DNA of 64,000 nt from contig CAZOYD010000001.1 of assembly GCA_964583985.1 (NCBI GenBank), positions 133,595-197,594 of the forward strand, read 5' to 3'. Each line of letters opens with the position of its first letter. Within the stretch, counting starts at the first letter, position 1. The translations under genes were made by a program, and so were the position numbers. Positions 2 through 11,526 of this stretch are shown in pieces. Source of the stretch: an uncultured archaeon. GTDB lineage: Archaea > Asgardarchaeota > Lokiarchaeia > Sigyniarchaeales > SOKP01. A model generated the notes under the pieces. The model was not told the origin of the DNA. It saw nothing but the letters and a program-made list of their open reading frames with translations, and made no database searches.

Positions 2-292
2 ATTGAAATAGTTCCAATAACCATAATAAATGCAATTCCTATGGGATTCGCGTGGGGAGGAATTTTAGGTTTAATTTCATATTCCTTGTTCCCCATCATG
101 AATCAAGAAATAACCGCATTCATGGCGATTATTCCTATAAGATTGAAAGGGAAAACTTTCTTATATGTCATTATCATATTAAGAATATTCCCAATATTGT
201 TTAGTCCTCTTTCTTTCGTGGTCTATCTTCCTGATTTAGGTGGAATTTTAGGAGCTTGGATTCTTTTTCAATATCAAATAAAAAGAAATTAA
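2..292 (+). CDS. C-terminal part of a rhomboid-like membrane protein, 5' truncated by the window edge, catalytic residues apparently absent
   Basis: Frame is open from position 2 (IEIVPITIINAIPMGFAWGGILGL...). Hydrophobic. GFAWGG and PDLGG occupy the places of the rhomboid GASG and AHLGG motifs. Confidence 0.5.
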   Translation: MEIVPITIINAIPMGFAWGGILGLISYSLFPIMNQEITAFMAIIPIRLKGKTFLYVIIILRIFPILFSPLSFVVYLPDLGGILGAWILFQYQIKRN

Positions 293-310
293 AAAAAAAG
301 AAAAAAGATC

Positions 311-949
311 ATGAAAATTATCGAGTTAAATGAAGATTTAATAGGAAATAATGAGAAATTAGCTTCTGCGAATAATGAATTATTCAAAAAAAATAAGATA
401 AAATCTTATGATATTGTAGGCGCTATTGGAGCAGGTAAAACAGCTTTACTGGAGGCAATCGTTAGTCATATTTCCAATGATTTTAATGTGCTTGTGATTA
501 ATGGGGATGTAGCAACAAGAATTGATGCTGACAGAATAGAACAGCATGGGGCAAAATCGATCCAAGTGAATACAGGAAGGGAATGTGCTTTAAATTCTTA
601 TCATATCAATCAAGTACTAAAAAATATTGATTTAAAAGATTATGATATTGTTTTTATTGAAAATGTGGGTAACTTGATTTGTCCATCCGATTTTATTTTA
701 GGTGCTGACAAGAGGATTGTAGTTGTATCAATCACGGAAGGAGAATGGGTAATAAAAAAGCATCCGTTATTGTTTAAGATGTCAGATATAGCGGTAATTA
801 ATAAAATCGATTTAATGGATGTTATGGATATAAATATTGAGGAGATGATTTCTGATGCACGCAATATCAACCCTAATTTAGAAGTAATTACGACAAGTGC
901 TCAATCTGGGGAAAATATTTCTAAATTCATAAATTTGCTCCTCTCATGA
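311..949 (+). CDS. hypB: Hydrogenase nickel incorporation GTPase HypB
   Basis: GAIGAGKT, QVNTGREC, ENVGNLICP, NKID and TSA motifs. Confidence 0.92.
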   Translation: MKIIELNEDLIGNNEKLASANNELFKKNKIKSYDIVGAIGAGKTALLEAIVSHISNDFNVLVINGDVATRIDADRIEQHGAKSIQVNTGRECALNSYHINQVLKNIDLKDYDIVFIENVGNLICPSDFILGADKRIVVVSITEGEWVIKKHPLLFKMSDIAVINKIDLMDVMDINIEEMISDARNINPNLEVITTSAQSGENISKFINLLLS

Positions 950-1050
950 GAAAATTGCAAGAAAATGTGTTTTGAACTAAATTAAGAATAAAAGCAAAAG
1001 AACATTTCTAATATTAATTATATAGAAAATATTCATTATTAATCATAAAC

Positions 1051-1464
1051 ATGTCGCTTAGATCATACAATCAAGAATTAGGTCTACTTATTGATAAGAT
1101 CGTCAAGGTCTACCTAGAAGGAGAAGGATTTTTTGTAGGTCAGTTAAAAGGAGTCTCCGAAGATTCAAATCTTATACTTGTAAACGCTAAGAACCATAAA
1201 AATCATGCTTTTCCTAAATTATTAATACGTAGCTCATTTTATAATTTTGTGACAATAGAGGATGAACCATTTCCCATGAAAGCTTTATCAGAGAGAATTG
1301 GGACGATTTTCTCTGGACACGTTAATTACATAGAAGATCAAAACATCATTTCAATATTAAATGGTAAAATTATCGTTGATGAAAATGGTGTGAGAGGGAC
1401 GGGTCCTTCTTCTGATCGCGTAAAGAAAATTTATGAGCAATTTATACTAGATATTGAGAAATAA
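1051..1464 (+). CDS. Sm-like protein with C-terminal extension (SmAP3 type)
   Basis: Sm1-like GQLKGVSEDSNLILVNA and Sm2-like LLIRSS; C-terminal GVRGTGPSSDRVKKIY resembles the SmAP3 extension. Confidence 0.75.
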   Translation: MSLRSYNQELGLLIDKIVKVYLEGEGFFVGQLKGVSEDSNLILVNAKNHKNHAFPKLLIRSSFYNFVTIEDEPFPMKALSERIGTIFSGHVNYIEDQNIISILNGKIIVDENGVRGTGPSSDRVKKIYEQFILDIEK

Positions 1465-1490
1465 TTGTATCCTTTTATTTTTTTTCCAAT

Positions 1491-1997
1491 TTAAGAAGGT
1501 CTTTCTTGTTCAAAAACATTAAGCAAGTTTTTTAATCTTAGATCTTGAATTATATTCTTCAATATGGCTTTACCAAGCGGTGTAACCCTAATAATGTCTA
1601 AATCTTCAATTTCTCTTAAATAATCATTAGCAATTAAAAATTTAATATCTGAATCCCACACATCAGAAAATAGGGTCATAAGATCTTTTTTTGGTAAATT
1701 TTCTTCTAATTCCTTACCAAGAGCTGTTATCAATGCCAAAATTCCATATTGGGAGGGTGATATTGTATCATCCATTCCATCGGTGGTTAACACGTAGAAG
1801 TTTTGATCAAAAAATTTAGTTTTTATTAGTTCAAATCCTACATTTTGCAAATTTTGGTAAACTTCACTTATAATTTCCTCAAAATCTTGGTTACTACTAA
1901 GGGTTTTCAAGTCTTCTTCTCTAACTAACTTTTGAGGATTTGTTAAAATGAGTTTCGTTATTTTTCTAACCGTTTTTTCAATTTCTTGATTTTCCAT
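1491..1997 (-). CDS. Tandem winged-helix KITE-like protein (MAGE/Nse3/Nse1/MksE-like)
   Basis: LQNVGFELIK...YVL followed by QYGILALITAL, and a C-terminal wing IRVTPLG; 168 aa; last gene of the operon. Confidence 0.55.
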   Translation of the reverse strand: MENQEIEKTVRKITKLILTNPQKLVREEDLKTLSSNQDFEEIISEVYQNLQNVGFELIKTKFFDQNFYVLTTDGMDDTISPSQYGILALITALGKELEENLPKKDLMTLFSDVWDSDIKFLIANDYLREIEDLDIIRVTPLGKAILKNIIQDLRLKNLLNVFEQERPS

Positions 1998-2000
1998 AAT

Positions 2001-3635
2001 CTAGTCACTATCTATAATTTTTATTATTTTTATATTGTTAATTTGATTTTTTAGTTCTAAATTAGATATGATAAAGACGATCGTATAATCATTGAAAGTT
2101 GAATTTCGTTCAAACAATTGAATTAATTTTCGAATTGTTCTGAATATTGATCCTCGTTTATTATAAGTATCAGGAATAAAAGCATTTGAAATAATGATTG
2201 TTTTTGATCTTTGGAGCATCTTTATTGCAATTTGCAATATAATTATAAAATAAATCTTTTCAGGGGTAGTTAGGTCATTAAATGGTAAATTATCGTTCTT
2301 GGTTCTGGTAAATTGAGGATGAATTAATAATTTTTTATAATCCTCTGTAATTGATATTTCTAGGTTTATTCGTAAATTTATCTCATTTAACAATAAATTG
2401 AGTGTTTCCTCTAATTTAGTCACATGAGACTCTAATATGAAATACCCTTCGAACATTTTATCGAATTTTTGATCTGCATCAGAAATAGTCATTTTATTTT
2501 TATTTTTATTTAAAAAGTTAATTAATTTGCCAAGTTCGTCTGTTAAAGCCTCAAAATTAATGATAGAATCATCATTTACATACGTTTCACTTGTTAAAAT
2601 CGTTTCCATTCTTAATTCAAGATCTGATAATGCGAGTTCTATTTGGGAAGGGGTTTTAATAGACTTAAAATCGATTTTTTGTACTTGTTCACTCAAGCTT
2701 ACATCTAAACTTGTAAGTGCCTTTTTTAGTTCATTTTCTTTTATCTTTGCTTTATTTTCATCTTCCTTTATCAAATGTACTAGTTTATCATAATCTTGAG
2801 TAATGATTTTAAATTGGGGGAATAAATCGTCATGTATCTGTGAAATTTCGTCAAGATTTAGTTTTAATTTGTTAATCTCGTACTGAATTTCTCTTGCTTT
2901 AATTTGTAATAATCTGATCTTCTCAGCATTTGTCATTTCAGAATCTAAATCTAAAAGAGAATTGAGTTCTTCTTCATTTGTTATTAATTTTGAGGATATA
3001 TCCATATTACGAGTAATTTTATTAATATAGCTGAAACACATTTTTTTTTTATTTGTCAAGTTTTGTAAAATATCATTATTCTTCTGGATATCTTTATTTA
3101 CATTGTCAATTTGATTTTTCTTTTTTTGATAATCTTGTGCTAAATAGCTTAATTTGGTTTTGTTTTCTATTAATGATTTATTTAACTTTTCTAATAAATC
3201 CGAAATTGCTTTTATTTCACTTGATTGTTTAAATGTTTTAGCAATCTCTAATTCTTTATTGAGTCGAGATTTTTCATTATTTAGTGTAATGATTTGAAAC
3301 AATTTTATTATTTTGTGAGTCAGATTAATTAGATTTGATAATAAATCAGTATTTAAATCGATTGATTTAAGATAATTCTTTAAATATTTTAAAAGATTAA
3401 TTGATTCTTTAATCATAGGGTAAAAAGAATCTAGATTCTTTATTAAATTCTCTACGGGTATAGGATCTAAATTTGTGATTAATTCAACTAAATTTTCATC
3501 CTTAATAGAGATTATATCATCGTCTTTAATCTTACCAATGATTAAAGTTAATCGATCTTGGATGAGATATTTCCGTGTTCCTATAGTTATTTGTCCATGC
3601 TCATCTTTAATATTCATTTGTTCATTCCTGACCAA
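2001..3635 (-). CDS. SMC/Rad50-like long coiled-coil protein with degenerate ABC-ATPase head
   Basis: N-terminal RLTLIIG with no P-loop; about 350 aa of heptads; C-terminal LTTPEK (cf. LSGGEK) and IIISNAF (cf. Walker B ILDE). Confidence 0.6.
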   Translation of the reverse strand: MVRNEQMNIKDEHGQITIGTRKYLIQDRLTLIIGKIKDDDIISIKDENLVELITNLDPIPVENLIKNLDSFYPMIKESINLLKYLKNYLKSIDLNTDLLSNLINLTHKIIKLFQIITLNNEKSRLNKELEIAKTFKQSSEIKAISDLLEKLNKSLIENKTKLSYLAQDYQKKKNQIDNVNKDIQKNNDILQNLTNKKKMCFSYINKITRNMDISSKLITNEEELNSLLDLDSEMTNAEKIRLLQIKAREIQYEINKLKLNLDEISQIHDDLFPQFKIITQDYDKLVHLIKEDENKAKIKENELKKALTSLDVSLSEQVQKIDFKSIKTPSQIELALSDLELRMETILTSETYVNDDSIINFEALTDELGKLINFLNKNKNKMTISDADQKFDKMFEGYFILESHVTKLEETLNLLLNEINLRINLEISITEDYKKLLIHPQFTRTKNDNLPFNDLTTPEKIYFIIILQIAIKMLQRSKTIIISNAFIPDTYNKRGSIFRTIRKLIQLFERNSTFNDYTIVFIISNLELKNQINNIKIIKIIDSD

Positions 3636-4662
3636 AATGTTTTTTGAATTTCTTAAATTCTTCTGCCTTCAATTTTTTCCTCTTTCTAATTAAATCTACA
3701 GGGTCTTGTTCTTGGTCTATTCCAATTAAATTTTCATCTTGAAATTTTTTTTCGAATTGAGATTTAAATAATTCTATTTTCTCAGATATTTCTTCACTAA
3801 TTTCTAATTCTTTAGATTGATTGAAAGGAACATCGATATTACTTAATTTTTCTCTTGATTTTTTCCTCCTTCGTCTTTCAAATTCTTTTGCTGACAATTT
3901 TAGGTAATCTTGATAGCCTTGATTTTGTTCTTCTTGCTTTAATTTCAATTTCTCTAATTCTTCTTTTTCCTTCATTTTTTGTAGGAGGGCTCTTCTCTTG
4001 TTTAAATCAGAGGCTGTTAGCAATTTTTCATATTCACTAAAGAATTTCTCAAAAGATAAATCAGGATCGTCATAAAAAGCATTCTTGAAATCATTTTTAA
4101 TCTCATTATCAAATTCCTCAGGAATCATCTCCAATTCTTTTTTTAATTTTATAGCTGTAATTTTTCCGTAATAATCCCTTATTACAGGGATTAATTTCAT
4201 AAAAATTGAATTTTGATTTAATGAATCTAAAAGATTAAACCAATCATTCATCAAAATAGAATTAACATAGGAAATCTGTTGATTTACCTTACTAATTTTT
4301 TGCTGGGAAATTAAGTAAAGCCCCAGAATTTTGCTCTTTTCTTGATCAATATTCAGTCTTAGTAAATGATTTTTATATTGTTCCTTGTATTTTTTTAGTA
4401 AATTATCTTGAAAATTAAGGAAATTAGTGATATTCTTGTTAGTGATTTGAGTGAGTTCATTATATAATTCTTGGAGGTGAGTTAACATCTTTTCAATCTG
4501 TGTTTTTTCAATTTTAAGAGAATTTACTTCATAAATCTGCTTTTTTGATTGGTTGACTTGTTCTATGGAAAAAGAAAGGGAATTCAATCTATTTTGCAAG
4601 GTATTTAATGGTTCTGTAATGCACTTAATTCTATTTAAATCAAAAATTAAATCTTTTGACAT
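3622..4662 (-). CDS. Coiled-coil/helical hypothetical protein
   Basis: 346-aa ORF rich in K/E/Q/L heptads; overlaps the next gene by 14 nt. Confidence 0.7.
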   Translation of the reverse strand: MSKDLIFDLNRIKCITEPLNTLQNRLNSLSFSIEQVNQSKKQIYEVNSLKIEKTQIEKMLTHLQELYNELTQITNKNITNFLNFQDNLLKKYKEQYKNHLLRLNIDQEKSKILGLYLISQQKISKVNQQISYVNSILMNDWFNLLDSLNQNSIFMKLIPVIRDYYGKITAIKLKKELEMIPEEFDNEIKNDFKNAFYDDPDLSFEKFFSEYEKLLTASDLNKRRALLQKMKEKEELEKLKLKQEEQNQGYQDYLKLSAKEFERRRRKKSREKLSNIDVPFNQSKELEISEEISEKIELFKSQFEKKFQDENLIGIDQEQDPVDLIRKRKKLKAEEFKKFKKHFGQE

Positions 4663-4699
4663 TATTCATCACTTCTTTTTTTATAACTCTTTTAAGGAA

Positions 4700-5806
4700 T
4701 TAAATTTCAGGGGGTTTTTTAGTGCTATTTAGTTTTTTCTCATTTCCTTCATCTATTTTTATACTTTTAGTTGTAGCTAATGTATTTTGACGTTCGACAT
4801 GAATTGCTGTGCCACCGACTAATTTTAAGGAATCATGGAAGAGATCGTAAGTTAGGAGATCACTAGATATAGCCTTTAATAATGCAACCTTAGTCCCTCT
4901 TTCAATATCAGATCCAGAATACCCATGAGTTAATTTTAATAACCCCTCTCCTTTAATTTTTTTAGAGATTTCATTCCATAATACCATATCGTCAAATTCC
5001 GTGACTTTTTGACCCATTTTATTTGTGATATCTTTTTCAATCTTTTGTATACGATTATATTCATCATCTAAACGAGTAAAAATTTGATCATCAACGCCTA
5101 TTTTTGCTTGCTTGATTTTATCTAAAAAAGCTTCAATTATCTGTTTTCTAAGATTATAGTCTGGAAAATCAAACTTGAAATGAAATGTAAATCGCCTCCA
5201 TATTGCTGAATCTAATTGATGTTGGTGATTTGTAGCTCCAAAAATAGCAAGGGGTACCCCTTCATAATTTACTCTATCAATTACTTGTAAAAAAGAAATA
5301 ACAGCACGTTTGATCTCTCCTACCTCATGAATATTGGATCGTTCTGATCCAATAGCATCAATTTCATCAAAAAATAAAACAAAAGCACCTCTTTCTTTAG
5401 AAATTTCTGAGGATAACTCAACTACATTTCGTATGTTTTTAATTGTATCTCCTAATAATGGTGAAACAAGGCGATCTGACTCTACAACACAAATTGGCAC
5501 ATTATATTTTTTTGCAAATCCCCTGGTTAGTGAGGTTTTTCCCGTTCCTGGAGGTCCATATAAAAGTACAGTGAGATTTGGATTTAAGTTTGTATTTTTT
5601 AACTTTTCAATGAATTCATAATACTTATTCAAGGCTTTAAAAAATTCTTCGAGAAGATCTTTGATTATATCATTTCCTAATATATCATCAACTGATTCTT
5701 TTATATCTTCTGGAAAATATACCGCACCATATTTTCCAATTCTTTCTTTAATAACATCGTCAGTATACACTACTTTTTTTTCAACATCATCTTTTAATTT
5801 GGATAT
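4700..5806 (-). CDS. Single-domain AAA+ ATPase; probable ATA start at 5806 (ORF track uses GTG at 5770)
   Basis: Walker A GPPGTGKT, Walker B FFDEID, sensor ATN and LDSAIWRRF; GAGGTGA lies 6 nt upstream of the in-frame ATA. Confidence 0.9.
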   Translation of the reverse strand: MSKLKDDVEKKVVYTDDVIKERIGKYGAVYFPEDIKESVDDILGNDIIKDLLEEFFKALNKYYEFIEKLKNTNLNPNLTVLLYGPPGTGKTSLTRGFAKKYNVPICVVESDRLVSPLLGDTIKNIRNVVELSSEISKERGAFVLFFDEIDAIGSERSNIHEVGEIKRAVISFLQVIDRVNYEGVPLAIFGATNHQHQLDSAIWRRFTFHFKFDFPDYNLRKQIIEAFLDKIKQAKIGVDDQIFTRLDDEYNRIQKIEKDITNKMGQKVTEFDDMVLWNEISKKIKGEGLLKLTHGYSGSDIERGTKVALLKAISSDLLTYDLFHDSLKLVGGTAIHVERQNTLATTKSIKIDEGNEKKLNSTKKPPEI

Positions 5807-5835
5807 TTTCTTTCACCTCTTTTTTCGGTTTATTC

Positions 5836-7140
5836 TTACTTAGGTTTTTTTCTTTCTTTATCAAACTTTTCACAAAATAGAGCAATTTCATCAATGAGCT
5901 CTTTTAAATTATCGATTTGCGACCCAATAAAGTTAAATATTTCCTTTCTATACTGAATTGAATCTCTTATTTTCATTTTATCTAATCCAAGATAATTCGG
6001 AAAACAAATTAATTTCATTAAATAAGGTAATATTTTTTCATTGGTTTGTAAATCTTTAAAAATTGTATAAAATATATTTTCCTCTGATAATTTCCATTTT
6101 AAAATCCCCATATATATTAAAAATGCAAAATTCATCGAAATCCAATTAATTAATTCTTTTGATAAAAAGCCTCTGCGTTGAGAAACAAAAGCAAGGTAAT
6201 GTAAGATAAGGGTTTCATTACTGAATTGAGGAAAATATCTTATAGTTCCATCGGATTGTTTATTTGTCCTTAAAAAATTATTTTCTTCTAATATACTTAC
6301 AAATTCCTCTTTAGGTGCTAAAAATAGATCATCGATTAAACGCATTCCAATTCGTTCAGCTAAATTTTCGATAGATTCTTCTTCAGCATTAGCAATGGAG
6401 TCTATATAAGGTAAAAATATTTCACTTTTTAAAATCATTGGAATTTCACGATTAGGCTGTTCGGGAAAATCACCGAAGTTAGGATCAAGATTAAATAATG
6501 ATGTTATATTGTTAATTATTTGATATAATTTTGGAGAAATACCAGGTATTTCAAATGAATCTAAATTTTCAAGTTTCTCTCGATAATAGGTGTGTGATTG
6601 CAATAAATGCCTTTGGCATTCATAATATTCATTCGAAAAATTAAGTAGTTTTTCATATATTATTTTTAAACTTGCTCCTTTAGGAAATAAACGCTCTTCT
6701 ATATATTTACTAAGAGAATATAAGTACGTCTCATCGAGATTTTTTTGATCTGGATTTGTTATGTGTCTTAAAATATATAAAGCCCCGATTGATTCTTGTA
6801 AAAATTCTATGATATAATCTTTTATATCAATAATTGGAATTGTTCCCCTATACTTAATGATAAAATTCTTGATTATTTCATAGATATTGGATCGATACAT
6901 TGCAGAAAATTCGGATAATGCTCTTACTTTTCTTATATTTCTTTTTTCCTCTTCTTCACGAATTTTATCTAATATTTCCGTATCATTTAATAAATCCGCA
7001 TCCAAATCACTGATTATTTTTCTTGTTTCTCTAAGAATTGGTCTCATATGACTGATAAAAGTAAGATATCTTGGTAAAATATCAGTCCATTTTTCACGCT
7101 TCCGACCGGATTTTCTAGTAGATTTTTTTGAGTAACTCAT
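5836..7140 (-). CDS. Hypothetical helical protein (434 aa)
   Basis: Long ORF within a tightly spaced operon; basic N-terminus; family not recognised. Confidence 0.75.
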   Translation of the reverse strand: MSYSKKSTRKSGRKREKWTDILPRYLTFISHMRPILRETRKIISDLDADLLNDTEILDKIREEEEKRNIRKVRALSEFSAMYRSNIYEIIKNFIIKYRGTIPIIDIKDYIIEFLQESIGALYILRHITNPDQKNLDETYLYSLSKYIEERLFPKGASLKIIYEKLLNFSNEYYECQRHLLQSHTYYREKLENLDSFEIPGISPKLYQIINNITSLFNLDPNFGDFPEQPNREIPMILKSEIFLPYIDSIANAEEESIENLAERIGMRLIDDLFLAPKEEFVSILEENNFLRTNKQSDGTIRYFPQFSNETLILHYLAFVSQRRGFLSKELINWISMNFAFLIYMGILKWKLSEENIFYTIFKDLQTNEKILPYLMKLICFPNYLGLDKMKIRDSIQYRKEIFNFIGSQIDNLKELIDEIALFCEKFDKERKKPK

Positions 7141-7158
7141 AATTTTTCATTTAATGAT

Positions 7159-8298
7159 TTATTCATTTTCATATCCAACTACAATTTCTGCAAAAATATT
7201 AGCAATTTCCACAAAAATCGGAATCTCAACACGTACCAATTCACCTAACACCCATTTATTGACATCTTTTAATAGGAAACGTATCTGATTATGAATTTTT
7301 TTATTTATTTCTGAATCAATGATTTTTGACAGCCATAAACCTCCTCCTAATCGATAAGCAATGATTTTTATAAGTGGTTCAAATAATGGTTCTAATACTT
7401 GTCGCATCATCCAAGATTTTGGAATGATGCTCATATTACTCTCATCATAACCAGGATCATTTAAAATAGGATTAGTTTCGTCCACGGAGAGTTTTGGCAT
7501 AAAACTCAATAATAAAATTAAGGCGAAAATAGCACAGATTCCGTTTATGGTATAAGAACCTCCAATTTTTTCAATATTATCGCTATTTATTGCAATGTTT
7601 GCTAAAAACATGCATATAAATACGTTCCTATCAAAATTCTCGGATACATAAGCATATCCTAATTTAGGATCAAGTATCAAGTATTTCTCTTCAAGAATTT
7701 TAATGATATCATCAGGAAAGGTGAAAAAAGTGTAAATTTTTTCTTCGCTCCGTCTTACATCTTTCTCAATGACTAATTTTTTAGAGACTAACCCAAACAT
7801 ATTAACAAGTTCTTCCAGCTGTTTTTTAATGTAGTGGCGAGGTTTATTTGGATCTCCAAACATTGCATAAAATTGATGATCTACGATATGAAAATCATTC
7901 CTTTTACTGAAAGCTTCGACCATTCTATCTATAATAGGAGTTTGAGTTCCTGATGCAATTGCTTTTGCTTTTGAGGAGACAAAACCATTAAGTAATTCAT
8001 TTATAATAAAGTCTTGTTCGTGGGTTCGGGACTTTAAAATCTTACTAAATGCTTCTGAGAAATTCTTCGTCTTAGGGAAAAAAAAATTTTGAATTTTTTC
8101 ATTTATTGCCTTCTTAAATAAGTCCCCATCATTTCGTGGGAAATGTAACTTCATATTTTCAAGTCTTTGTATTAAGGCATCTTTTGCTCCGGGTATATTC
8201 TCAACATCCCGTTTTGCCACTTGCTCAATTGCTAATTCAAGACCTTTTTCAAAAGATTGTAAGAGTTGCCTCCAAGTCGAATCTATAATTTCCCCCAT
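7159..8298 (-). CDS. Hypothetical protein (379 aa)
   Basis: Long ORF with AGGTGG SD-like motif upstream; family not recognised. Confidence 0.75.
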   Translation of the reverse strand: MGEIIDSTWRQLLQSFEKGLELAIEQVAKRDVENIPGAKDALIQRLENMKLHFPRNDGDLFKKAINEKIQNFFFPKTKNFSEAFSKILKSRTHEQDFIINELLNGFVSSKAKAIASGTQTPIIDRMVEAFSKRNDFHIVDHQFYAMFGDPNKPRHYIKKQLEELVNMFGLVSKKLVIEKDVRRSEEKIYTFFTFPDDIIKILEEKYLILDPKLGYAYVSENFDRNVFICMFLANIAINSDNIEKIGGSYTINGICAIFALILLLSFMPKLSVDETNPILNDPGYDESNMSIIPKSWMMRQVLEPLFEPLIKIIAYRLGGGLWLSKIIDSEINKKIHNQIRFLLKDVNKWVLGELVRVEIPIFVEIANIFAEIVVGYENE

Positions 8299-8313
8299 TT
8301 TGCACCACCTAAT

Positions 8314-9273
8314 TCAGGTCCAATTTAAATCATTAGATATTTTTTTTAGAGCATTGATCAATGGTCTAATATCCTTTTTATCATAAATATTTGGAGACGA
8401 TACTCCCTTTTGCGCTTTCCATCCCATTTGAGTGCCTTCAGCCATCTCTCTCTGTCCATATTTAATTAGTTTACTAAAATCTCGAGTCCACCAATAAAAT
8501 CTAAGCCATCGTTTATTTGGATTATTACTTGAATAGATGACAACTATCGCTTTCCACTCACCTACAAGCCATTTGATGGTGATTCCACTTATAGGCATGT
8601 AGAAATTAATAGGAAAATTACTATGAAATTGCAAGTCAAGGTCTTCAGGATCAATATTAAAAATTGGTTGATTATATCCTTCTAAAATCACAATTTCTGA
8701 ACAATGTTGGCATATATAATGAGATTTATGTTTTTCCATTTTCTGCTGGCAATTGGGGCATGTTTTATTCTCAAGGATGCGATATTTAATGATGTCTAAT
8801 TTTTTATTTTTGTCTGCATCCTCTTTAGTTTCTGAATTGGTTTTACCATAACTTCCTTTCCAATTCCATAATTCATCGAAAAATTCATCAATTTTTTCCA
8901 ATGCTTTAATTAAATTATTTAACACGCTATTATCATAAATTTTAATCATTCCTGCATGTTGGTATGTTTTCCACCACGAAATTCTTACGTATCTCTCACT
9001 TTTTAACAAGGTACTATGACAAATTAAAGCTGCTAATACTCTAGCTTCAGTTTTACTGATAATTATCCCTTTCTCACAAATTTCATACTCTTTATTCAGA
9101 GTTAGCTGGGTATGGAAATACTCTCCATCTAAATATTCTCCTTTCTTGTCGGTTTCTTCTGAAATTTGTTCACTGTTTTTGTCTTTAGGCTTCAATATCT
9201 TTCTACATTGAGGGCATTGGAAAATTCCTGCTACAAGAGGTTCCATTTCAACATTACATGAGGGACATTTCAT
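8314..9273 (-). CDS. Internally duplicated Zn-ribbon plus PC4-like domain protein
   Basis: CPSC..CPQC and CPNC..CQHC ribbons, each followed by similar segments (YVRISWWK...IYD..LIKALEKI and WLRFYWWT...GWKAQKGVS..IYD..LINALKKI). Confidence 0.6.
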   Translation of the reverse strand: MKCPSCNVEMEPLVAGIFQCPQCRKILKPKDKNSEQISEETDKKGEYLDGEYFHTQLTLNKEYEICEKGIIISKTEARVLAALICHSTLLKSERYVRISWWKTYQHAGMIKIYDNSVLNNLIKALEKIDEFFDELWNWKGSYGKTNSETKEDADKNKKLDIIKYRILENKTCPNCQQKMEKHKSHYICQHCSEIVILEGYNQPIFNIDPEDLDLQFHSNFPINFYMPISGITIKWLVGEWKAIVVIYSSNNPNKRWLRFYWWTRDFSKLIKYGQREMAEGTQMGWKAQKGVSSPNIYDKKDIRPLINALKKISNDLNWT

Positions 9274-9275
9274 AA

Positions 9276-10376
9276 TTATTCATTCTTGCTTTCTATTATT
9301 AATCTTTCATAATCTAAATTTAATAACTTCAATTCTTTTTTAGTCAAATCTGAAATTTTGTCATTAATTTCCACAATTATTTCTCTTAATTTTATGAGCG
9401 TGTCTTGAATAATATTTACTAGTCCATCTTCATTAAAAGAGATTTTTTCGATGAATTTAATATAATTATGTTTTTTGTTTTTCCCAGAATAATAGTTTCT
9501 TAATTCATTAATCTGAACTTGAATCTTATTTAATTCGCATCTGGAATTTAATAAGAAGGTTAGATCTTTGTACCATTTTTTATATATATCATTTGATTTT
9601 TCAATATTATCTAAATCAAATTTATCTGATAATTGAATTTTAGAATCCTTTAAAAAAGAAATAACTTCTTTTTCTTGTTCTATTGCTTCATCTATCTTTT
9701 TCATTCCGGATTTAGAATTTAATACGGGATCAAATAACTCAATGTAATTATTGACTTTTTCCATTAATTCTTCAAATCGTTGGTAAAATCCTTCAATTGT
9801 GATTTCAATTTTAATCGCTTGATAGATATTACCATAATGATCTAATATATAATAGAGATCATTAGAAAGTGTGTAGTCATGTTCTCCAATTTCATATATA
9901 AATGGATGAATAACACTGCTTTTTTCACAACTAACACTCTTTAATCTCGTGAGTGCGAGATTGAAATTTCTTCTGGTTAGAAACTTGAATTTTTTTTTTA
10001 TAATTAGGAAGAGAACATCATCAGGTATGGAAATCGTGTCATTTTCAATTGTGATGGTTTCTTCTCCTAATTTGAGTATAAAATCTCCTTCTAATTTATT
10101 AAATTCGCCTAAACTCCTTACATTTTTGAAAACCCCTAGATCTATCATTATACCAATAAAATCTTCATCCCAAAATTTAATTACGTTATTTTTAAAAATT
10201 TCATCCAAGATTAAAACTCTATCATAAGATTCAATCAATTTTGAATCAGTTAGATCTTTAAATAAATCATTACGAATAATATACATAAATAAGATGATGT
10301 AACGCATATCTACATCATCAAGGATCCGGATTAACAAATTTTCATCTTCTTCTATTGAAAGAGACTTATGTTCCAT
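9276..10376 (-). CDS. Winged-helix plus helical-bundle protein, first gene of the operon (possibly kleisin/MksF-like)
   Basis: LTRRNFNLALTRL...FIYEIGEHDYTLS resembles a wHTH recognition helix and wing; helical C-terminal half. Confidence 0.45.
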   Translation of the reverse strand: MEHKSLSIEEDENLLIRILDDVDMRYIILFMYIIRNDLFKDLTDSKLIESYDRVLILDEIFKNNVIKFWDEDFIGIMIDLGVFKNVRSLGEFNKLEGDFILKLGEETITIENDTISIPDDVLFLIIKKKFKFLTRRNFNLALTRLKSVSCEKSSVIHPFIYEIGEHDYTLSNDLYYILDHYGNIYQAIKIEITIEGFYQRFEELMEKVNNYIELFDPVLNSKSGMKKIDEAIEQEKEVISFLKDSKIQLSDKFDLDNIEKSNDIYKKWYKDLTFLLNSRCELNKIQVQINELRNYYSGKNKKHNYIKFIEKISFNEDGLVNIIQDTLIKLREIIVEINDKISDLTKKELKLLNLDYERLIIESKNE

Positions 10377-10547
10377 GCCTATTGTCCACTCATCTTAATT
10401 TTAATCATTTCAATTAAAAAGAGTAATGATCATAATTAAGCATTCCTAAAAAATTTTATGGTCTCCTATAATTTCTCTTTAAAAAAGCGAAATTTTTTTA
10501 GTTTTGGTTCACTTATCATTATTGTAATAATTTTCGCGTGAAGTTCT

Positions 10548-11126: not shown

Positions 11127-11526
11127 TAATTCAAATTTAGAAACTAAATCTTTTATATGATTTTTGTTTCAATTGATTTGTAAGAATGAATTGATACTAA
11201 TTATTAAATGCTATTTTATTAAATAAAATCATCAAGTTAAAGCTAATCGGAACATATATTTATGTTAGAGAGCTTACTAAATAGATCCCAAATCTCCTTG
11301 ATTTTGAGGATCAATTTCTGGATATGCAGATTTAGCCCCAGATCTATGAAATAATTCATAGAAAGGATAGGAATGAGTTTATTTATTTTTCTATTTACTA
11401 TAGCAACGTAATTCTCATCCATTATCACTACTCATTTTAATTATGTTAGGTCTAAAATTAAATAGAATGAGATAAGTAATTGGATTAAAAATCTTAAAGG
11501 AATATGAAGTAATTAACTTAGGTACA

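Follow-up and report, generated by a model that had tools for sequence, protein, structure and literature searches.

The 64,000-nucleotide (nt) stretch of DNA analysed here, referred to as the window, comes from an uncultured Lokiarchaeial archaeon and carries eight co-oriented minus-strand open reading frames (ORFs) between positions 1491 and 10376. These ORFs, named g1 to g8 in transcription order, include a predicted SMC/Rad50-fold protein with decayed ATPase motifs, a predicted tandem winged-helix kite protein and an AAA+ ATPase with intact motifs. Their number, orientation and coordinates are exactly those given in the original prediction, which had described the operon as resembling a rewired SMC-kleisin-kite system driven by an AAA ATPase. 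The genes and the adjoining intergenic region are as follows (protein lengths in amino acids, aa):

g1, 9276-10376, minus strand, 366 aa: first gene of the operon, a family without known relatives.
g2, 8314-9273, minus strand, 319 aa: internally duplicated protein, each half with a Cys4 zinc ribbon and, after it, a Trp-rich domain.
g3, 7159-8298, minus strand, 379 aa: distant paralogue of g4 and the most conserved protein of the operon.
g4, 5836-7140, minus strand, 434 aa: distant paralogue of g3 with a basic N-terminal tail.
g5, 4700-5770, minus strand, 356 aa: AAA+ ATPase of the classical clade, motifs intact, core nearest to IetA.
g6, 3622-4662, minus strand, 346 aa: helical N-terminal domain and a K/R/E-rich tail, fast-evolving.
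g7, 2001-3635, minus strand, 544 aa: predicted short-armed SMC/Rad50-fold protein with decayed ATPase motifs.
g8, 1491-1997, minus strand, 168 aa: predicted tandem winged-helix kite of the Nse1/Nse3/MAGE type.
Intergenic region, 10377-10547, AT-rich, 171 nt: between g1 and the divergently transcribed elf1, presumed to be the promoter region of the operon.

The sequence of g7 has no family match in Pfam or in a profile search of PDB sequences; the Pfam models SMC_N and AAA_23 miss it, whereas they do detect the SMC proteins of a sister cassette described below. The AlphaFold2 model of g7 (predicted local distance difference test score, pLDDT, 81.3) has an ABC-type head joined by an antiparallel coiled coil, with N-terminal strands at residues 15-34, helices at 69-211 and 236-419, and a C-terminal α/β region at 421-540. 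The coiled coil extends over about 140 residues in the outgoing helix, and the return is longer but interrupted. The apex (residues 212-235) is modelled with low confidence, as a loop of about 25 residues that contains a single short helix; there is no Pfam match to SMC_hinge, and the apex has no CxxC zinc hook. In Foldseek searches the best matches were the heads of Rad50, Smc5/6, JetC, MukB, LmuB and cohesin (probability 1.0), headed by Rad50 (7zr1, E 9e-10). Superposition of the g7 head with an independent aligner gave Z scores of 10.2-10.6 and root-mean-square deviations (rmsd) of 3.5-4.7 Å over 195-215 residues (3qf7_A, Z 10.4, rmsd 3.5 Å, 195 residues; 6s6v_C, Z 10.6; 5h68_B, Z 10.2). 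The predicted structure thus assigns g7 to the SMC/Rad50 fold, in which the N- and C-termini form a globular head at the end of a long antiparallel coiled coil.

The consensus motifs of SMC/Rad50 ATPases are GxxGxGKS/T (Walker A), LSGGQ/E (signature) and hhhhDE (Walker B). In 13 orthologues of g7 the corresponding positions read LI-G-K-F/I-K, LTTPEK and II-S-N, respectively, and to judge from these residues the protein can no longer bind or hydrolyse ATP. The description of g7 as an ATPase-dead SMC/Rad50-like protein in the original prediction is therefore upheld by both the predicted fold and the motif alignment.

The neighbouring gene g8, which begins 3 nt downstream of g7, encodes the predicted kite. 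Kites (ScpB, MukE, JetB and Nse1/Nse3/MAGE) are proteins of about 160-250 aa with two winged helices, which bind the central region of the kleisin and are encoded beside the SMC gene. The AlphaFold2 model of g8 (pLDDT 85.8) contains one winged helix at residues 2-72 and another at 81-138. The top six Foldseek matches were MAGE-G1/Nse3, Nse1 and MAGE-A3/A11, followed by ScpB, JetB and MukE, and ESCRT-II/Vps25 and cullins appeared lower in the list. Superpositions by VIA-align gave Z 10.4 with 5wy5_B and Z 9.9 with 7dg2_A (rmsd 4.3 Å, 154 residues), and the fold search of the Atlas returned eukaryotic Nse1 at a template-modelling (TM) score of 0.61 and MksE/DUF4194 at 0.59. The leading PDB and Atlas fold matches thus span all three kite archetypes, headed by Nse1/Nse3. 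These models identify g8 as a tandem winged-helix kite of the Nse1/Nse3 archetype, so that both the tandem winged helix of g8 and the ABC-type head of g7 are present in the predicted structures. A profile search of PDB sequences with g8 gave no meaningful match, and the Atlas feature search returned only unannotated Asgard clusters plus one MAGE cluster at 0.79, which we treat as a lead only. The g8 orthologue of one closed genome (G037; L037:12910-13650, plus strand) ends in a tail of about 80 residues, most of it (TTKKK)n-type repeats; this C-terminal tail, which may be a basic DNA-binding extension, is shorter in another locus (L044) and absent from g8 of the window.

The AAA ATPase claimed in the original prediction is g5, which matches the Pfam AAA family (PF00004) with an E value of 1.6e-25. 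Walker A (GPPGTGKT), Walker B (FFDEID), sensor 1 (GATNH) and the WRRF arginines are kept in 12 orthologues, including those from both types of cassette. The best annotated match is the PADLOC model of IetA (E 1.1e-58); the NCBIfam model IteA scores 177 bits (E 4e-52), over the core only and with a cut-off of 510 bits, and the models of PAN, CdvC and CDC48 score about 80-87 bits. On this evidence g5 is classified as a classical AAA+ ATPase with every motif intact and a core nearest to that of IetA.

The other five proteins have few or no relatives. For g1, Pfam, NCBIfam, PADLOC and PDB-profile searches gave no significant match. The zinc-ribbon protein g2, whose duplication had been noted in the original prediction, contains two Cys4 zinc ribbons (Pfam Zn_ribbon_6, E 1e-5), and its halves align with each other by hhalign at 98% probability (E 2.1e-13, 123 columns), which identifies it as an internal duplication. 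Its one PADLOC row, for LmuB, is insignificant (E 0.03), and PADLOC found nothing else for g1-g4 or g6-g8. Comparison of g3 with g4 (hhalign 95% probability, E 2.4e-8, 234 columns) likewise marks these two proteins as distant paralogues. Neither has relatives in Pfam or in PDB sequence profiles, the Atlas feature search of g3 gave no usable match, and a search of 1.84 billion representative proteins gave g3 matches in only 41 clusters (50% identity). Profile searches against all PDB sequences with g1, g2, g3, g4, g7 and g8 found no meaningful match. Basic tails are present on g4, g6 and some orthologues of g8.

A remote full-length homologue of g3 (hhalign 97%, E 1.8e-11) was found in another Asgard family, on a short contig (L094; G239:C831:1-5393) with genes at 1022-2182, 2750-3199 and 3215-5041, all on the minus strand. 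The genes upstream of it encode a UQ_con-ThiF (E2-E1) fusion and a JAB peptidase, a setting of the ubiquitin-like or CBASS/Bil-like kind, and the contig has no SMC or AAA+ genes.

The kleisin is the protein that defines SMC-kleisin-kite rings: its N-terminal helical domain binds the SMC neck and its C-terminal winged helix binds the cap. By position, only g1 and g6 are candidates. No kleisin or other family was detected in any of 14 orthologues of g6, which also gave no hhalign match to ScpA or to the proteins of the variant operons, and g1 and g6 compared by hhalign with the ScpA and Nse4_C-like proteins of other SMC operons remained below 1% probability. Complex prediction with g1, residues 1-290 of g6 and two copies of g8 scored 0.60, against 0.59 when g1 was swapped for an unrelated protein, and thus speaks neither way. 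Two-thirds of the label SMC-kleisin-kite therefore stand, namely the SMC fold and the kite, and the kleisin was not identified.

The operon is set among core genes. On the g8 side it is flanked by a HypB/UreG-type GTPase and an Lsm protein, and on the g1 side by the divergent Elf1, two conserved unknown proteins, a radical-SAM protein and Pelota; no tRNAs or mobility genes lie near it. All eight genes were found in identical order and with the same flanks (HypB/Lsm to Elf1) in 14 of the 14 same-genus loci examined and also in a second genus of the family, and two closed genomes of a second family keep the same order and flanks, with a shorter g6 (232-271 aa) and a g7 of 543-555 aa. Synteny is thus conserved in two families of one order, and such an arrangement far exceeds what chance would produce. 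A single copy of g7 was found in 22 of 23 same-genus genomes. Searches with g4 and with a profile of g3 show both to be single-copy in 114-117 of the 133 genomes of the family (g4 in 114) and in 13 of the 14 genomes of the second family, which belongs to the same taxonomic order. Elsewhere in the phylum, 247 genomes yielded neither, apart from the one remote g3 homologue.

Dispensability of the operon, as the genomes apparently lacking it might imply, was considered and rejected: all five that were inspected proved to have assembly gaps, not losses. Three of them also lack the Lsm flank, one has Lsm at a contig edge, and the fifth is a "single-contig" assembly with a run of N beside Lsm. Although its record gives a single contig, this last assembly (G094:C1, locus L101) is a scaffold interrupted by 100-N gaps; one gap falls exactly at the expected site of the operon, and calls of absence in such "closed" genomes need checking.

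Within the genus, amino acid identity is 77-84% for g3, 77-82% for g4 and about 70% for g5, 55-71% for g1, g2 and g8 (57-63% for g1), and only 32-49% for g6 and g7; the flanking Lsm and HypB share 68-85%. To the second family, g1 is 28-35% identical. The ratios of nonsynonymous to synonymous substitution rates (Ka/Ks), computed against the nearest genome, are 0.05 for g3, 0.06 for g4, 0.09 for g5, 0.17 for g1, within 0.09-0.17 for g2 and g8, 0.22 for g6 and 0.245 for g7, with 0.04 for Lsm and 0.10 for HypB as flank references. With values of 0.05-0.25 in all eight genes, the whole operon is under purifying selection. The value for g7 is alike in the head and the arms, and the possibility that this gene is a decaying pseudogene was rejected in view of its Ka/Ks and of an intact ORF in more than 20 genomes. 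Homologues of g7 form 78 clusters, all of unannotated Asgard proteins; the public records are unannotated proteins from metagenome-assembled genomes of "Promethearchaeota" or "Lokiarchaeota", and the Atlas clusters belong to the same phylum. The operon is thus a single-copy, vertically inherited element in a housekeeping-like setting of a Promethearchaeota (Lokiarchaeia-type) archaeon, and the housekeeping role proposed from its core flanks and the lack of mobility genes gains from this vertical inheritance at a fixed locus between Lsm and Elf1.

A sister cassette sheds light on the relation between the AAA+ ATPase and the SMC part. In two genomes of the second family (G031 and G049), homologues g1' (392-399 aa), g3' (421-423 aa), g4' (546-561 aa) and an AAA+ protein (327-337 aa) are followed by an SMC of 1057-1071 aa, a 322-325-aa protein with a weak MksE match (E 6e-3) and a 313-aa protein with a weak Nse4_C match (E 1.3e-3); G031 also has a 176-aa protein. 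Congeners of both genomes carry the standard cassette. The same arrangement occurs on two metagenome contigs, one with g1'-g3'-g4'-AAA+ and a 1075-aa SMC (L096), and one with g3'-g4'-AAA+ and, after it, a partial SMC of the same family, of which the first 516 residues are present (L097). The first gene of these full-SMC operons aligns with g1 by hhalign at 97.3% (E 2.3e-11, 299 columns). Their SMCs retain Walker A (GKNGSGKS), a signature-like SSGQK and Walker B (IDEFD), and form a family of their own with 32-47% mutual identity and BLASTP E values of 1e-12 to 4e-4 to the other two SMCs of the genome. Divergently upstream of the cassette, contig L097 encodes a further motif-intact SMC (885-3878, minus strand, 997 aa; GANGSGKT, LSGGQ, IDEF), which belongs to another family than the cassette SMC and is accompanied by a 159-aa gene (192-671, minus strand).

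When G031 was compared with the standard-type genome G037, the GHMP kinase, Lsm, a 683-aa gene and g2 proved to be 49-59% identical (g2 59%), whereas g3', g4' and g5' share only 23-35% and g1' has no BLASTP match. This pattern indicates cassette replacement at an unchanged locus in at least one relative: a divergent cassette took the place of g1 and g3-g8, and the resident g2 stayed. The AAA+ module is thus found together with an ATP-competent SMC and did not arise as a substitute for the SMC ATPase, and the proposal in the original prediction that an AAA+ motor stands in for the SMC ATPase is weakened. To judge from the gene contents of the two cassettes, the AAA+ protein is probably an ancestral partner that was in place before the SMC ATPase was lost. 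Either a complex already equipped with an AAA+ motor came to do without the SMC ATPase, which is the more likely course, or a motor-less SMC part took the place of the original one. When the N- and C-terminal head segments of g7 were aligned by hhalign with the sister-cassette SMC heads, the probability was below 1%, so direct descent of g7 is not demonstrable by sequence; the same C-head alignment sets LTTPEK on SSGQK and SN on DE, in register.

The genome from which the window comes also holds a canonical SMC (contig 38) and ScpA/ScpB (contig 40), as well as a second SMC operon on contig 68 (G000; L061:1210-7089, plus strand). The latter encodes a 400-aa unknown protein, a 1154-aa hinge-bearing SMC and proteins of 215 and 178 aa, is preceded by an ArsR-type helix-turn-helix gene and is probably of the archaeal SMC5/6-related type; BLASTP of g1 against it gave nothing significant. 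Two further proteins of 887 and 851 aa encoded elsewhere match SMC_N below the Pfam cut-off and could be Rad50.

The organization of the operon is compact. With ATG, GTG or TTG starts, the successive intergenic gaps are 2, 15, 18, 65 (g4-g5), 37 and 3 nt (g7-g8), and g6 and g7 overlap by 14 nt. The original prediction of gaps of at most 37 nt and one overlap thus applies except to the g4-g5 gap, and the overlap is present only when g7 starts at TTG. In the closest g7 orthologue a stop codon lies shortly before the ATG at residue 7, so that g7 probably starts at the ATG at 3617, which yields a protein of 538 aa and a 4-nt gap to g6. The GTG start of g5 is preceded by the 65-nt spacer (5771-5835), in which GAGGTGA occurs about 43 nt ahead of that start, along with an open frame without a canonical start codon; g5 orthologues begin with an ATG about five residues earlier, so that g5 may start elsewhere in this genome. 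The G+C content is about 24-32% over the region, with a minimum of 24-27% across g6-g8. Beyond the operon, the distance from elf1 to a conserved 154-aa ORF is about 0.4 kilobases (kb) in the window (11127-11526) and about 1.9-2.4 kb in most relatives. The same-genus comparison (L011:13626-15559 and other loci) indicates a segment either lost in the window or gained by the relatives.

Canonical and SMC5/6-related SMC-kleisin-kite operons of archaea are described in the main texts of two studies, which also report a third kite paralogue, confined to Asgard archaea, whose gene lies with an SMC and a kleisin of its own (Yoshinaga & Inagaki 2021, PMC8665677; van Hooff et al., bioRxiv 10.1101/2024.01.07.573240). 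This Asgard-only locus may correspond to the sister cassette. The two main texts contain no AAA+ partner (0 occurrences of "AAA"), no g1-g4 and no motor-dead half-length SMC, and we found no paper describing the operon in the literature on Asgard IetA and on Lokiarchaeia SMC and kleisin. The operon resembles the archaeal SMC5/6-related type in having an SMC-fold protein beside an Nse1/Nse3-type kite in an Asgard genome, in addition to SMC-ScpAB, and the sister cassette shares with that type a motif-intact full-length SMC and a weak Nse4_C-like neighbour. In contrast, the SMC-like protein of the window is half-length (544 aa) and hingeless and has lost Walker A, signature and Walker B; no kleisin is recognisable, and the SMC part is always linked to the AAA+ protein and g1-g4.

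Similar distinctions apply to the other known systems. Among the subunits of eukaryotic SMC5/6 with Nse1-Nse3-Nse4 (PDB 7dg2, 5wy5, 7qcd), g8 superposes best on Nse1 and Nse3/MAGE-G1 (Z 9.9-10.4, TM about 0.52-0.55) at a sequence identity of only 8-18%; however, the window has one kite gene instead of an Nse1/Nse3 pair, no RING, Nse4, Nse2 or Nse5/6, and an SMC with a dead ATPase. Wadjet (JetABCD) and MksBEF have in common with the operon an SMC-like protein and a kite, and JetC and JetB appear in the fold match lists of g7 and g8, but the operon occupies a fixed housekeeping locus and not a mobile island. PADLOC, Pfam and NCBIfam scans of the eight proteins found neither a JetD/Toprim nuclease, in agreement with the original prediction, nor a JetA/MukF-type kleisin. 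With IetAS the operon shares the g5 core, whose closest annotated match is IetA; it lacks the subtilase-like partner IetS, is seven genes larger, and the match lies far below the NCBIfam cut-off. Rad50/SbcC and Lamassu LmuB are similar to g7 in size, in the short antiparallel coiled coil and in head fold, whereas g7 has no zinc hook, no Mre11/SbcD or LmuA/LmuC partner and no ATPase motifs.

With somewhat more confidence than doubt, we propose that the operon encodes a third, lineage-specific SMC-kite-type housekeeping complex acting on DNA, in which the SMC arm is passive and the AAA+ protein supplies the energy. The SMC part would comprise g7, the kite g8 and the fast-evolving coiled-coil protein g6, and the accessory module g1, g2, the paralogous g3 and g4, and the intact AAA+ protein g5. 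Dimers of g7, joined by g8 and probably g6, would act as a passive clamp or tether on DNA, and the AAA+ ring, as the only source of chemical energy, would assemble, load, remodel or strip the complex, with g1, g3 and g4 as adaptors and g2 as the contact to nucleic acid. What suggests DNA as the substrate is the descent from SMC-kite systems, together with the zinc ribbons and the basic tails of g4, g6 and some orthologues of g8, and we infer the division of labour between passive SMC arm and AAA+ motor. More tentatively, we consider it possible that an SMC-family machine handed its energy supply to a separate AAA+ ring: g1, g3, g4 and the AAA+ protein would have been a loader/unloader or remodeller of SMC-kite complexes, ancestral in Lokiarchaeia, after which the SMC's own ATPase was no longer needed and decayed.

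Several observations weigh against this proposal. Nothing in the analysis shows DNA binding or physical interaction among the eight proteins, and the kleisin was not identified, the Pfam families ScpA, Nse4_C, Rad21 and MukF missing g1 and g6 in any of the 14 orthologues. By hhalign and BLASTP, g6, g7 and g8 have nothing significant in common with the sister-cassette proteins (best 17-29% probability on short stretches), nor are they significantly similar to the second SMC operon or to ScpA/ScpB of the genome. The descent of g7 from a full-length SMC is therefore argued from the predicted fold and gene position only. In addition, the nearest annotated relatives of the g5 core are the IetA proteins of an anti-phage system, and the two- to threefold faster evolution of g6 and g7 relative to their neighbours is also compatible with an arms race.

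These last two points lead to an explanation that we consider unlikely, in which the operon is a domesticated or active immune system of the Wadjet, Lamassu or IetAS kind, in which an SMC-like sensor with a kite would recognise foreign DNA and an IetA-like AAA+ protein would carry out the response, with g1, g3 and g4 as effectors. The best family match of g5 is an anti-phage ATPase, but this match covers the AAA core only (177 versus 510 bits). The fold of g7 also matches JetC and LmuB and that of g8 matches JetB; such a sensor would, however, be without the ATPase on which Wadjet and Lamassu depend. The rapid divergence of g6 and g7 (32-49% identity, compared with 60-84% for their neighbours) would suit immunity, as would the two cassette types swapped at one locus and the defence-like context of the remote g3 homologue beside an E2-E1 fusion and a JAB peptidase. 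However, known defence islands are patchy and mobile, whereas this operon is single-copy at a fixed core-gene locus without mobility genes in more than 130 genomes of two families. All its genes are under purifying selection, g3 and g4 being constrained like Lsm, and Pfam, NCBIfam and PADLOC scans of the eight proteins found no nuclease, protease (IetS), Toprim (JetD) or other effector domain.

An equally improbable explanation is a structural (cytoskeletal or membrane) or protein-remodelling complex acting off DNA, with the dead SMC as a scaffold, the winged helices mediating protein-protein contacts, as in ESCRT-II or cullins, and the AAA+ protein working like Vps4/CdvC as an unfoldase or disassembly factor. 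It would accommodate the predicted inability of g7 to bind ATP, since ATP-driven head engagement is what couples SMCs to DNA, the place of g5 in the classical AAA clade with CdvC/Vps4, PAN and CDC48, and the lack of a nucleic-acid-related signature in g1, g3, g4 and g6. ESCRT-II/Vps25 and cullins do occur among the matches of g8, but they rank below the SMC kites Nse1, Nse3/MAGE, ScpB, JetB and MukE; moreover, the sister cassette combines an ATP-competent SMC with a weak Nse4_C-like neighbour, and the two zinc ribbons of g2 also speak against this explanation, as do the basic tails of g4, g6 and some orthologues of g8. A Rad50-like DNA-repair module, in which a degenerate Rad50/SbcC (g7) tethers ends and the AAA+ protein takes the place of Mre11, HerA or NurA, appears least probable. 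Rad50 is the best Foldseek match of g7 (7zr1, E 9e-10), Rad50/SbcC heads superpose best (3qf7_A, 6s6v_C), and short arms without an SMC hinge would fit this family. Against it, the apex has no CxxC zinc hook, the operon has no Mre11-, NurA- or HerA-like gene, the partner g8 is a kite and hence a companion of SMC, Muk and Jet proteins and not of Rad50, and the separate 887- and 851-aa proteins are candidate Rad50s of this genome.

The proposed SMC-kite-type complex with an AAA+ motor would be of interest for the study of chromosome organization. To our knowledge, all well-studied SMC complexes (condensin, cohesin, SMC5/6, MukBEF and Wadjet) depend on their own ABC ATPase. In contrast, an SMC-fold protein whose ATPase appears to have been erased is kept under purifying selection in more than 100 Lokiarchaeial species, always with an intact AAA+ protein and a kite, the latter of the Nse1/Nse3 type that eukaryotes use in SMC5/6. 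If the eight proteins form one complex, it would represent a new way to power or regulate SMC-type DNA organisers, and the two cassette forms, with an ATP-competent or a dead SMC and the same accessory module, would offer a ready comparison. With the operon, the chromatin-related protein set of the archaeal lineage nearest to eukaryotes also grows by five families without known relatives (g1, g3/g4, g6 and the g2 architecture). The proposal would become testable in cultured Lokiarchaeia, provided that these carry the operon. Should the AAA+-powered mechanism hold true, the operon would be a natural experiment on the need for SMC ATP hydrolysis in the closest archaeal relatives of eukaryotes.

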